From a virus (lineage: Duplodnaviria > Heunggongvirae > Uroviricota > Caudoviricetes), in the IMG/VR virus record IMGVR_UViG_2526164690_000021: DNA of 12,182 nucleotides. One strand, written 5' to 3'. Shown piece after piece: positions 1 to 2,465 of this stretch. Position 1 is the stretch's first letter. Every line of letters starts with the position of its first letter. Position numbers and translations under genes: made by a program. The notes under the pieces are model-generated. The model saw only the letters and a list, made by a program, of their open reading frames with translations, made no database searches and had not been told where the DNA came from.

Positions 1-2465
1 TCAGCCTGACTCGGGAGCAGTTTTTGCCAGATGGCTGAAACGTATTTCGCCTGGTAACGTGCATCGTGCAGGGCGTTATGGCGTTCACCTTCGAATGGAA
101 TAGTCGTTCTTGCGTCGAAATCCATCACCAGTCCCAGAGCAACCATCGTTCTTACATCGCGATCATTGGTGTAACGCCACGGGCAGGGGATCCCCTGCCG
201 TTCATATGAACGGCGTAAAATCACGTTGTCGAAAGTTGCACCGTTACCCCAGACCTGAACAAAAAATTCACCGGAGTTTTCGTCGATAAATTCCCGGAAT
301 TGCAGCAGTGCATCATCCAACGTGATTTCATCGGTCAGAATGGAGGATTGTGCTTCGCGTGACTGTTTCAGCCACCACTTAATGGTGTCCCGATCGATGA
401 CCCCACCTGCGGTTTCCAGATCGATAGTTTTGCTGAATTCTGGCCCCATCTCTCCGGTTGCCGGATCAAAAAACTTACCGGCTATAGAGTTTATTGGCGC
501 ATCAGGATTTTTTCCCATTGTTTCAAGGTCAATCATCAGATGGTGCCACAACCTGCTGGTGGATGAGATTTCATGATGACCGTTCACTTTAATTAAGGGA
601 TTTGCTGTTTCGCCAGTTTTATTATCGCTGGCGTGATACTGATCGCTGCCAGTGTTCTCCTTGTGCAGATGTTCAGTGCCTTCCATTTCCTCCGGATCAT
701 TTTTCTGAGCTTCAGCCTGATTCTCTTCATCGAATGTTTCCAGGTAGGTTGCGTTCCCCATCACCGCACCACAGTCAGGACAGTTGCCGCCACCGGTCTG
801 ACCGCATGCGGTGCAAACTTTTTCCAGTTCCTGTTGCACTGCTGGTTCTGGTTGTTGTTCTTCTGGCCCGCTTTGTTGCGTATCCGGGCTGTTTTGTTCC
901 GCTTCTGGCTCATTTTGTTTCACGTTGGGCTGATTCTGGTCCTCAGCGTCGCGACTCTGGATCCCTTTCACCCATTTCGGATCATTCGGGTCGCTAATCC
1001 CTTCAACAAATTCACCACGTGATGCAGCAAGCAATTTATCGGCGTCAGGCTGGCTGATATTGGCTGCCTGCATAATTTTGTTTACTTCGTCAGCGGTAAC
1101 TTTTACCGGCTCTGATTGTTCGGAATCTTCAGCGGTATCCACATTTTGCGGTAAGCCCGTGTATGTGCCATTTTTTCGGGCAAAATATTCTTCTTTTGAG
1201 ATTTCGGTACCGCCGGCAGCCAGCGCCTTGTCCAGACCAGAAAGTTTGTTTGCCCTGCCGTATTTTTCCCCGCCCTTATCGGTAAAGACGAAATAAAATG
1301 GTCCTTCACGCTCTACAGATGGTTCAGCTTCCACCAGGATTTCATTTTTTTGAGTATCGGATTCTGCCGTCTCCACTGGAGCAGTTTGTGCTGCTGACGG
1401 CTGGAGAGCATCAGTAGAGCTCTGGTCTGTTTCTTCATGTTCAAACACGCCCTTTGTCGTCAGGTATTCACTGATATATTTGTTCAGTGCAACGGGATCT
1501 TTGTGAATATCGATCGGACGTTCGCGAACAAGGCCAAAAATAGTCTGACGGTCATAGCCAAGTGCTTCGGGCTGTTTGCGCATTGATGCTGAGATACGCT
1601 TCCAGTCTTCGCGATCCTTGTCGATAACCTCATTTGTCGCCCAGCGATGGATGGTACCGTCAATGTTTCCTGCATCCACATCACCGGGCCAGAGGGCGCA
1701 GGCCAGTTCATTGTCGAGTGTTTTCCATGTCTGTTTGTATTCGCGGCGAATGGCAACAGTGACAGCCCCGGTTTTTTCAGCAGCGTTTTCAGTGTTCTGT
1801 TGGTTGACTCTGGCGCGGGTGAGATCAACAACAGACGTGTATTTTCCGGTTTCCTTGCGTTCACCTTCGCGACGTTTTTTCCAGATGCGCATCTCTGCCT
1901 GAATTTCAGGCCATTTAGCGCCAGGATCACATTTATGCTTAACCCACCCGATGGCATGCAGTTTAAGTTCAGGATACATGGCGTTAACTTCTGGCATTTT
2001 CATCAACGCTTCAACGATATGTCCGCCGAATGTTGCCATGTCTTCCTGTAGTAATTCCTGTGCGCTAATCACCATATCAACGGTGATGTTTTCGCATGTG
2101 TCGAATTTAACCAGGACTGCGTTCTGTACTTCAGGGGACAGCTTGTCAAAATTGACGTTCATCGGATCGGATTCTGGTTCGACCGGTACAAAGGAAGCTG
2201 ACTCCTCATCCCAGCGGTTTTCCTGCATATATTCGGTATCCCAGGAATCGAGGGCAGGGCGGGGTATGCCGGGTTTATCCTCGCAGACAATAAATTTATA
2301 AGCGCAGTCCTGAGCTGCCGGGAATTGCTCCAGAAATTGCCAGTGAAATTTTGCGCGTGCGCGACGCTCATCACCGGCTTCAATGGCAGTGGCCACCGCA
2401 ACAGCGCTATCTTCTTTTATGGCCTGTTCGTCAGGAATAGCAGCGCAAATAAAGATTTTACTCAT
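1..2465 (-). CDS. Large prophage recombination-module protein with a DEDDh (DnaQ-like) 3'-5' exonuclease domain; 3' end lies beyond the window start
   Basis: ATG at 2465-2463 preceded by GAGG; my own translation runs without a stop to position 3 and off the window (>=821 codons), which is why it is absent from the ORF track. Exo I motif MIDLETMG (D 528-530, E 522-524), Exo II GNGATFDNV (D 228-230), Exo III HNALHDA (H 78-80, D 63-65). Acidic low-complexity linker and a CxxC...CxxC cluster around 600-900. Sits where recE would be in Rac, but the DEDDh domain is not what I expect of K-12 RecE, so no symbol is given. Confidence 0.8.
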   Translation of the reverse strand, partial: MSKIFICAAIPDEQAIKEDSAVAVATAIEAGDERRARAKFHWQFLEQFPAAQDCAYKFIVCEDKPGIPRPALDSWDTEYMQENRWDEESASFVPVEPESDPMNVNFDKLSPEVQNAVLVKFDTCENITVDMVISAQELLQEDMATFGGHIVEALMKMPEVNAMYPELKLHAIGWVKHKCDPGAKWPEIQAEMRIWKKRREGERKETGKYTSVVDLTRARVNQQNTENAAEKTGAVTVAIRREYKQTWKTLDNELACALWPGDVDAGNIDGTIHRWATNEVIDKDREDWKRISASMRKQPEALGYDRQTIFGLVRERPIDIHKDPVALNKYISEYLTTKGVFEHEETDQSSTDALQPSAAQTAPVETAESDTQKNEILVEAEPSVEREGPFYFVFTDKGGEKYGRANKLSGLDKALAAGGTEISKEEYFARKNGTYTGLPQNVDTAEDSEQSEPVKVTADEVNKIMQAANISQPDADKLLAASRGEFVEGISDPNDPKWVKGIQSRDAEDQNQPNVKQNEPEAEQNSPDTQQSGPEEQQPEPAVQQELEKVCTACGQTGGGNCPDCGAVMGNATYLETFDEENQAEAQKNDPEEMEGTEHLHKENTGSDQYHASDNKTGETANPLIKVNGHHEISSTSRLWHHLMIDLETMGKNPDAPINSIAGKFFDPATGEMGPEFSKTIDLETAGGVIDRDTIKWWLKQSREAQSSILTDEITLDDALLQFREFIDENSGEFFVQVWGNGATFDNVILRRSYERQGIPCPWRYTNDRDVRTMVALGLVMDFDARTTIPFEGERHNALHDARYQAKYVSAIWQKLLPSQA

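Follow-up and report, generated by a model that had tools for sequence, protein, structure and literature searches.

A gene at the end of a dicBF-type prophage operon joins a RecE-type non-catalytic region to a DEDDh exonuclease domain

The function of the first ~590 residues of RecE (exonuclease VIII), encoded by the Rac prophage of Escherichia coli K-12, is still described as unknown, and the full-length protein is preferred for linear-linear recombineering (PMC11611040). DnaQ-type nucleases were reported in the recombination (Rec) modules of lambdoid phages by Zheng, Casjens, Davidson, Amundsen and Smith (Genome Res 2025), who named after its prototype, “Tritos”, a class having a nuclease, many Chi sites and no gene for a single-strand annealing protein (SAP), a single-strand DNA-binding protein (SSB) or an anti-RecBCD protein; sporadic DnaQ-type genes adjoin int (PMC12315714). 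The structure of the T4 nuclease DexA was solved by Kang et al. (NAR 2025), and its E. coli relative EcD was claimed to degrade only DNA containing 5-hydroxymethylcytosine (5hmC) and to protect against T4 (PMC12153337). In the dicBF operon of K-12 (ydfABC-dicF-dicB-ydfD-ydfE), a PL-like promoter under the control of the repressor DicA drives transcription, and YdfD, DicB and DicF are the only products to have been characterised (PMC10448788). Here we analyse a gene that brings these systems together. It lies in a stretch of 12,182 nucleotides from a Caudoviricetes virus (IMG/VR record IMGVR_UViG_2526164690_000021), hereafter the window, where it is the last gene of a repressor-controlled dicBF (PL-like) operon. 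The encoded protein has a single nuclease domain, of the DEDDh family, which occupies the place of the RecE nuclease behind a RecE-type non-catalytic region, and it has no annealing-protein partner.

Domain architecture of the exonuclease and its relatives

The gene is a single open reading frame (ORF) of the minus strand that starts with an ATG at window position 2465 and reaches position 1 after 821 codons. A copy 100% identical to it is found in E. coli 2013C-4538 (NZ_CP027582.1), where the coding sequence has 2472 nt (823 aa; WP_032278809.1, “exonuclease”) and the protein ends in ...LLPSQADF. This copy, which allowed the extension beyond position 1 and the full translation proposed in the initial annotation, places the end of the gene 7 nt beyond the left edge of the window (last two codons and stop). 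The ORF thus runs on past the window as had been noted, but merely by two codons and a stop, so that there is no giant continuing ORF. PHROG 2082 (“exonuclease”, 823 positions) aligns with the protein end to end. The long N-terminal region, acidic linker, CxxC...CxxC cluster and complete DEDDh motifs first read from the window are all present in this frame, whose features are the following:

1..2465, minus strand: coding sequence, aa 1-821 of the 823-aa protein; identical to WP_032278809.1 and intact counterpart of K-12 Qin ydfE
1854..2465, minus strand: N-terminal “type B” scaffold, aa 1-204, with an alpha/beta unit (~aa 1-100) and a helical unit (~aa 110-205) in the AlphaFold2 (AF2) model
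591..1682, minus strand: RecE-homologous non-catalytic region, aa 262-625 (BLASTP; AF2 domain map)
951..1109, minus strand: best-conserved central stretch, aa 453-505 (DADKLLAASRGEFVEGISDPNDPKWVKGIQ), nearly the same in K-12 RecE (alignment)
771..815, minus strand: CTAC-x7-CPDC (CxxC-x7-CxxC), putative zinc ribbon, aa 551-565 (translation; low AF2 confidence)
27..545, minus strand: 3'-5' exonuclease domain of DEDDh (DnaQ-like) type, Rv2179c/DexA family, aa 641-813 (Pfam PF16473)
513-536, minus strand: MIDLETMG, motif Exo I, aa 644-651, with D646 and E648 (translation)
222-248, minus strand: GNGATFDNV, motif Exo II, aa 740-748, with D745 (translation)
60-80, minus strand: HNALHDA, motif Exo III (H-x4-D), aa 796-802, with H796 and D801 (translation)

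Profile and structure searches bore out the DEDDh assignment. The profile PF16473 (“3'-5' exoribonuclease Rv2179c-like”) aligns in its full length (1-177 of 177) with aa 641-813, with E=3.7e-62 and 209.6 bits for a cut-off of 27. The five residues D646, E648, D745, H796 and D801 are invariant across the alignment with DexA, EcD and phage homologues. Only entries 8KEL and 8KEN, both of T4 DexA, were found when the protein sequence was compared with the Protein Data Bank (PDB). In the AF2 model of aa 451-821 the predicted local distance difference test (pLDDT) score exceeds 90 throughout the DEDDh domain, and its best Foldseek match in the PDB is again T4 DexA (E=1.2e-11, probability 1.0), followed by RNase T, a DnaQ domain, oligoribonucleases (Orn)/REXO2 and Cap18, all with probability 1.0. 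The protein therefore carries an RNase H-like DnaQ fold and is a confirmed member of the DEDDh family; from its motifs, a metal-dependent 3'-5' exonuclease activity is predicted for the domain. With the stop codon two codons past the window, the DEDDh domain is the C-terminus of the protein and nothing lambda-exo-like lies beyond it; it replaces the nuclease of RecE instead of adding to it. Pfam, PDB sequence and further checks gave no second nuclease signature in aa 1-640 either, and the multi-nuclease architecture once entertained for this gene is not borne out.

Relative to K-12 RecE, the gene has the same genomic slot, at the early-left operon's distal end and near xis/int. BLASTP aligned aa 262-625 with residues 278-591 of RecE (E=4e-59), the alignment ending just short of the RecE nuclease domain. 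Disordered linkers alternate in this region with two folded units, one helical (aa 245-343) and one small and of beta/alpha type (aa 385-435). The match is near-identical over the DADKLLAASRGEF...DPNDPKWVKGIQ motif (DADKLLAASRGEF...DPNDPKW in the comparison with RecE), the Cys cluster and the acidic tail; at the DNA level, recE is 89% identical at query positions 1420-1538, which overlap the conserved central stretch. The linkers around the Cys cluster, shared with RecE as is the CxxC-x7-CxxC arrangement itself, are acidic, Q/P-rich and disordered (D+E 27% in aa 506-550 and 23% in aa 576-640). The two proteins differ in their catalytic domains. PF12684 (PD-(D/E)XK, lambda-exo-like), which scores E=4e-28 over RecE 615-850 in the same scan, is absent from the window protein and PF16473 stands in its place, so that the predicted polarity is 3'-5' and not 5'-3'. 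They differ also in the N-terminal ~260 aa, which are here of another type without PF06630 (the RecE N-terminal domain, which K-12 RecE shares with 12 of the 14 DEDDh fusions of other genomes described below), and in the RecT partner found in Rac, for which there is no counterpart here. The NCBIfam RecE equivalog NF007259 reaches only 264.9 bits against a cut-off of 1269, its matching part being limited to aa 453-625. Because of these absences and this low score, the protein shares part of the non-catalytic region of RecE but is no RecE. The suspicion that its nuclease is unlike that of K-12 RecE proved right, and the DEDDh domain in the PD-(D/E)XK place makes the architecture a distinct one; its downstream part is not simply that of a standard RecE, since PF12684 is missing and the RecE homology is confined to the non-catalytic region. 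The name “exodeoxyribonuclease VIII” is thus a misleading annotation for proteins with a DEDDh fusion.

The type B N-terminus had no match in the Pfam copy used and has no solved structural relative. Families PF27430 and PF27432, precomputed for all full-length homologues, presumably cover the scaffold modules. The AF2 model of aa 1-460 (mean pLDDT 76) shows folded units at ~aa 1-100, 110-205, 245-340 and 385-435, separated by disordered linkers (aa 205-238, 344-384 and 438-460). Nei-Gojobori comparison with three full-length orthologues (Tritos, E. albertii and E. ruysiae) yielded ratios of non-synonymous to synonymous substitution (dN/dS) of 0.05-0.13 in each folded unit, the Cys cluster (0.05-0.06) and the DEDDh domain (0.10), and of 0.3-1.1 in the predicted linkers (0.3-0.9 in those given for comparison with the Cys cluster). 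The low values in every folded module indicate that the entire multi-domain protein is maintained, not the nuclease alone.

An exhaustive representative search followed by Pfam scans revealed that N-termini and nucleases occur in several combinations (P numbers designate representative proteins):

PF06630 N-terminus with PDDEXK nuclease: K-12 RecE
PF06630 N-terminus with DEDDh nuclease: P0124, P0127, P0135-7, P0148, P0164
type B N-terminus with DEDDh nuclease: the window gene, P0121
type B N-terminus with PDDEXK nuclease: P0138
type B N-terminus without recognisable nuclease: e.g. P0129, P0139

P0124 follows RecE with 88% identity from residue 1 to residue 592 and goes over from there to a DEDDh domain, the junction being the same as in the window protein. 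Scaffold and nuclease are therefore joined at a fixed position, corresponding to RecE residue ~592, and the natural swaps at this one junction identify the scaffold as a separable, selectively maintained unit. The Cys4 cluster is found in K-12 RecE, P0124, P0152 and P0178 and is absent from fusions of non-Escherichia type; the DPxDPKW motif is more widely spread, being present also in the Klebsiella and Kluyvera fusions. The RecE-type scaffold appears to exist as a separate gene beside lambda Red as well. In P0152 (683 aa; 58% identical to RecE 1-588), PF06630 and the central region of RecE are present, and Pfam finds no nuclease domain. This protein represents the type of gp06 of Shigella phage 75/02 Stx (2049 nt, ~682 aa), a RecE-like product labelled exonuclease without an annotated fused nuclease. 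In the phage locus (L119:2568-6377), the gp06 gene is situated directly upstream of gam-bet-exo (the lambda Red module). The gp06/P0152 type probably corresponds to the “RecE-2” of Zheng et al. Through such natural domain swaps, the function of the RecE scaffold becomes accessible to experiment: RecE 1-592 with PDDEXK or DEDDh, the second N-terminal type with either of them, and the scaffold alone beside Red are ready-made constructs.

The closest described relative is TRITO_27 of phage Tritos, a full-length orthologue of 823 aa that is 85% identical and found in the same dicB-ydfD-exo-xis-int context, also without SAP, SSB or anti-RecBCD genes. There is no difference of substance between the two, the window copy being a prophage allele. 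The fusion of a RecE scaffold with a DnaQ domain in the Tritos nuclease is not spelled out in the main text of PMC12315714. Standalone lambdoid DnaQ-type exonucleases, such as gp34 of epsilon34 and gp26 of mEp460, are 53-58% identical to the domain and are likewise encoded in the early-left operon, but they lack the RecE-type scaffold. The gp26 gene of mEp460 adjoins xis. The gp34 gene of epsilon34 lies between SSB and Abc2 and, unlike the window gene, has a putative recombinase gene, an SSB gene and one for an anti-RecBCD protein in its company (order recombinase-SSB-gp34-Abc2).

T4 DexA (exonuclease A) belongs to the same Pfam family and shares the DEDDh residues and the WW motif with the window protein. 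It is only 26% identical, is a standalone protein of 227 aa and has extra loops. DexA residues S87 and D90 correspond to T715 and D718, so that D90 is kept and S87 is replaced by Thr. W152, the proposed 5hmC-stacking residue of DexA, is also a Trp in EcD and most relatives but a Thr here (RYTNDRD). DexA D169 is paired by HMMER with an Asp of VMDFD, a loop that MAFFT aligns differently. EcD (the “HREX” nuclease, HAK9828821.1) is an E. coli DEDDh protein of the same family that starts exactly at the Exo I motif (MIDTET, as compared to MIDLET). It is a standalone protein of 189 aa, has no scaffold, is 39% identical to the domain, and has an Ala (A78) at the D90 position and a Trp at the W152 position, where the window protein has Asp (D718) and Thr. 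With this identity and these two residues, the HREX specificity is not simply transferable to the window protein. The EcD sequence was recovered from IMG/VR by a 17-mer of the published forward primer, and its A78 agrees with the numbering in PMC12153337; a 20-mer of the reverse primer had a single chance match in an unrelated contig, which was rejected. Compared with the contig sequences, the published reverse primer has a single additional A close to the stop codon. EcD-type standalone proteins of 189 aa (MIDTET..., A78) were seen on several viral contigs (L017:7842-8408, L012, L027, L028, L030 and L033).

Operon context and distribution

The gene is the last large one of the early-left operon, just ahead of xis/int, a location recognised already in the initial annotation as the recE position. 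The order in the identical genome is cI-like repressor, relB-relE, ydfA, ydfB, two small ORFs, DicF, dicB, ydfD-like gene, exonuclease gene, xis-like gene (DUF4224) and integrase. The elements of the window that define this context are:

2559..3172, minus strand: leftward-operon genes preceding the exonuclease gene (ydfD-like, dicB, DicF)
2559-2750, minus strand: ydfD-like DUF1482 gene (annotation of the identical locus)
2747-2935, minus strand: dicB (annotation of the identical locus)
3121-3172, minus strand: DicF antisense small RNA, full-length, upstream of dicB (Rfam RF00039, 77 bits)
5349..6130, both strands: immunity switch controlling the operon
5349-5750, minus strand: cI/DicA-like helix-turn-helix (HTH) repressor (annotated helix-turn-helix protein)
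5858-6130, plus strand: cro/DicC-like gene (annotated transcriptional regulator)

The presence of DicF identifies the locus as an early-left operon of the Qin/dicBF type. Promoter-like and terminator-like sites around the exonuclease gene are not more numerous than expected from shuffled sequences. Without a promoter-like site of its own and within a repressed operon, the gene is most likely expressed upon derepression, in lytic development. A weak hairpin followed by a T-run is found at window 2508-2521 (minus strand; L001:11945-11958), in the interval that separates the exonuclease start from the ydfD-like gene.

The recT- or bet-like gene for which the initial annotation proposed to check downstream is missing. 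No RecT, Bet, Erf or Sak4 gene follows the exonuclease gene, the small xis-like gene and int coming directly after it, and the annotation of the identical genome, in the stretch between the Q gene and int, includes neither an annealase nor an SSB or anti-RecBCD gene. By the annotation of this prophage, its Rec module is thus of the nuclease-only Tritos type, with an early-left nuclease and no SAP, SSB or anti-RecBCD gene. The xis-like gene and int also follow the exonuclease gene in phages Tritos and vB_EcoS-689R5, and int follows it directly in Citrobacter phage Chris1. A scan of related loci with an alignment of the domain only, taking one genome per species, returned 80 loci, with 14 fusion genes (685-828 aa) and 64 standalone genes (182-286 aa). 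The fusions are hosted by Escherichia, Pluralibacter, Klebsiella, Kluyvera, Atlantibacter, Kosakonia and others. All 14 have int downstream and HTH repressors upstream, and none has a RecT, Bet, epsilon34-gp36-like, SSB, Gam or Abc2 homologue detectable by tblastn in flanks of up to ~10 kb where the contig allows. Pfam analysis of the 88 same-strand ORFs neighbouring the fusions found 14 integrases and many HTH repressors, and no RecT, ERF, Rad52, AAA_24 or SSB domain among them. The PDDEXK-type RecE, for its part, retains its RecT neighbour in Rac and in phage vB_EcoS-673R7.

Two Chi sites (GCTGGTGG) occur on the plus strand of the window, at 555-562, within the exonuclease gene, and at 6374-6381; 0.33 sites are expected, and 10 of 200 shuffled sequences reach two. 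They fit the Chi enrichment reported for phages without a full Rec module.

The protein is the product of an abundant, already catalogued prophage gene, and its architecture is neither rare nor new. Of the 5426 complete E. coli genomes compared by Megablast, 4797 have a match and 3527 (~65% of all) have one that covers at least 80% of the gene, with a median of 2 and a maximum of 10 places per genome. Homologues are annotated as “exonuclease”, “3'-5' exonuclease” or “3'-5' exoribonuclease domain-containing protein”, and the intact gene is carried by isolated live phages such as Tritos. In K-12, the same slot after dicB-ydfD is taken by the Qin pseudogene ydfE (L118:4079-4999), which is 89% identical over aa 1-255 and is cut by IS2E, without the central module and the nuclease. 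As ydfE is an IS2E-truncated N-terminus, K-12 is devoid of a nuclease that most E. coli carry. K-12 DLP12 exoD was considered as a relative and rejected, having no tblastn match; a functional study of ydfE or exoD was not found in the literature. The DEDDh version is among the commonest prophage genes of E. coli, and we found no functional test of it in the literature. Copies of enterobacterial type (55-88% identical) are also present on contigs assigned to unrelated phyla, namely metagenome-assembled genomes (MAGs) of Veillonella parvula (L039), Geobacteraceae (L056) and Actinomycetes (L072), and Streptomyces (L108). The L039 contig bears in addition a Tritos-type integrase that is 99% identical. 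These copies are most likely binning or contamination artefacts and do not reflect the true host range.

Predicted role and alternative explanations

We consider it probable that the gene encodes an early-left-operon protein of a Qin/Tritos-type lambdoid prophage in which a RecE-type scaffold is combined with a DEDDh exonuclease of the DexA/Rv2179c family, and which processes DNA 3' ends outside of a RecET system. The non-catalytic scaffold (folded N-terminal units, central motif, Cys4 cluster and acidic disordered linkers) would carry a Mg2+-dependent exonuclease that takes nucleotides off free 3' ends. These are most probably DNA ends, since T4 DexA and E. coli EcD, the nearest relatives to have been characterised, are DNases. 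Made only once the prophage switch is derepressed, the protein would trim or degrade linear DNA ends during lytic development, the scaffold possibly serving as a tether or targeting module. It would not take part in RecET-style single-strand annealing. Phages of the Tritos/Qin type probably lean on host RecA/RecBCD for recombination, which agrees with the Chi enrichment reported for the Tritos class.

Several points weigh against this scenario. The Pfam family owes its name to an exoribonuclease, and an RNA substrate is conceivable. 3'-5' DNA exonucleases generally inhibit recombination and do not promote it (PMC12315714), a pro-recombination role being therefore unintuitive, and the function of the scaffold is unknown even in RecE (PMC11611040). 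Northern blots of K-12 show ydfABC-dicFB-ydfD transcripts and none into ydfE (PMC10448788); read-through into the exonuclease gene may consequently be regulated, and the expression timing proposed above derives from gene order only.

Three other explanations were ranked by likelihood in the order in which they are discussed here. The protein could be an anti-phage nuclease of the HREX type, a prophage defence gene product that selectively degrades the 5hmC DNA of incoming T-even phages as EcD does. DexA and EcD, which protects against T4 (PMC12153337), are indeed in the same Pfam family; most E. coli genomes keep an intact copy of the gene, also where the prophage appears to be cryptic, and it shares its operon with DicB, a blocker of some phage infections (PMC6832061; discussion of PMC10448788). 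We regard this as unlikely given the distance to EcD and DexA (39% and 26% identity), the Thr at the W152 position and the retention as D718 of the D90 residue, the tetramer contact of DexA, that is lost in EcD (A78). EcD is besides a standalone protein without scaffold, the PADLOC defence models gave no match for the full protein, and a repressor-controlled lytic operon in which the gene has no promoter-like site of its own above chance is atypical for a constitutive exclusion gene. An exoribonuclease like Rv2179c, acting on RNA 3' ends in, for instance, the processing or turnover of operon or host transcripts, is suggested by the Pfam description of a 3'-5' exoribonuclease domain, by the “3'-5' exoribonuclease” name that NCBI gives to many homologues, and by the structural neighbours that come after DexA (RNase T, oligoribonucleases and REXO2). 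The closest solved or characterised relative, by sequence as by structure, is nevertheless the DNase DexA, and Rv2179c is neither among the PDB sequence matches (E<=0.01) nor among the top 50 Foldseek matches. Moreover, the domain stands in for a DNA nuclease on the RecE scaffold, and standalone homologues 52-58% identical to it belong to DNA-recombination modules, as between SSB and Abc2 in epsilon34, so that we see little chance of RNA being the substrate. A two-component exonuclease of the RecET kind, or a multi-nuclease RecE having both DEDDh and lambda-exo-like domains, is very improbable. The recE position, the clear homology to the RecE central region and the frequent database label “exodeoxyribonuclease VIII” speak for it. 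Against it stand the stop two codons past the window, the absence of PF12684 and PF06630, the NCBIfam RecE score far below cut-off, and a polarity opposite to the one needed for single-strand annealing recombination; an annealase is found neither in the annotated early region nor in any of the 14 related loci, while the PDDEXK RecE keeps its RecT.

A broader interpretation, rather doubtful in our opinion, is that the RecE-type N-terminal and central regions form an autonomous nuclease-carrier module independent of polarity, the DEDDh version being an orphan 3'-5' DNase outside annealing-based recombination. It builds on the three settings in which the module occurs, namely joined to a PDDEXK nuclease (5'-3'), joined to a DEDDh nuclease (3'-5'), and unfused next to lambda gam-bet-exo. 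If this were true, the long-unexplained RecE N-terminus would gain a testable function, and candidate roles of the orphan DNase would be the destruction of 3' tails or of competitor or host DNA on induction, or the exclusion of other phages.

Other elements of the window

A RelB antitoxin and RelE/ParE toxin pair is encoded at window 4843-5321 (minus strand), directly downstream of the cI-like repressor and before ydfA. It occupies a moron-like position and may be transcribed together with the repressor. An ORF at 10694-11269 (minus strand), flanked by the replication genes and the hokD/nin region, overlaps a gene annotated as alpha/beta hydrolase in the identical genome; it looks like cargo and not like a phage function. 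Close to the window's right end, at 11547-11616 (minus strand), RNA-OUT, the antisense RNA of IS10/Tn10, is matched completely (RF00240, 98.8 bits), which suggests the presence there of an IS10 end or remnant.

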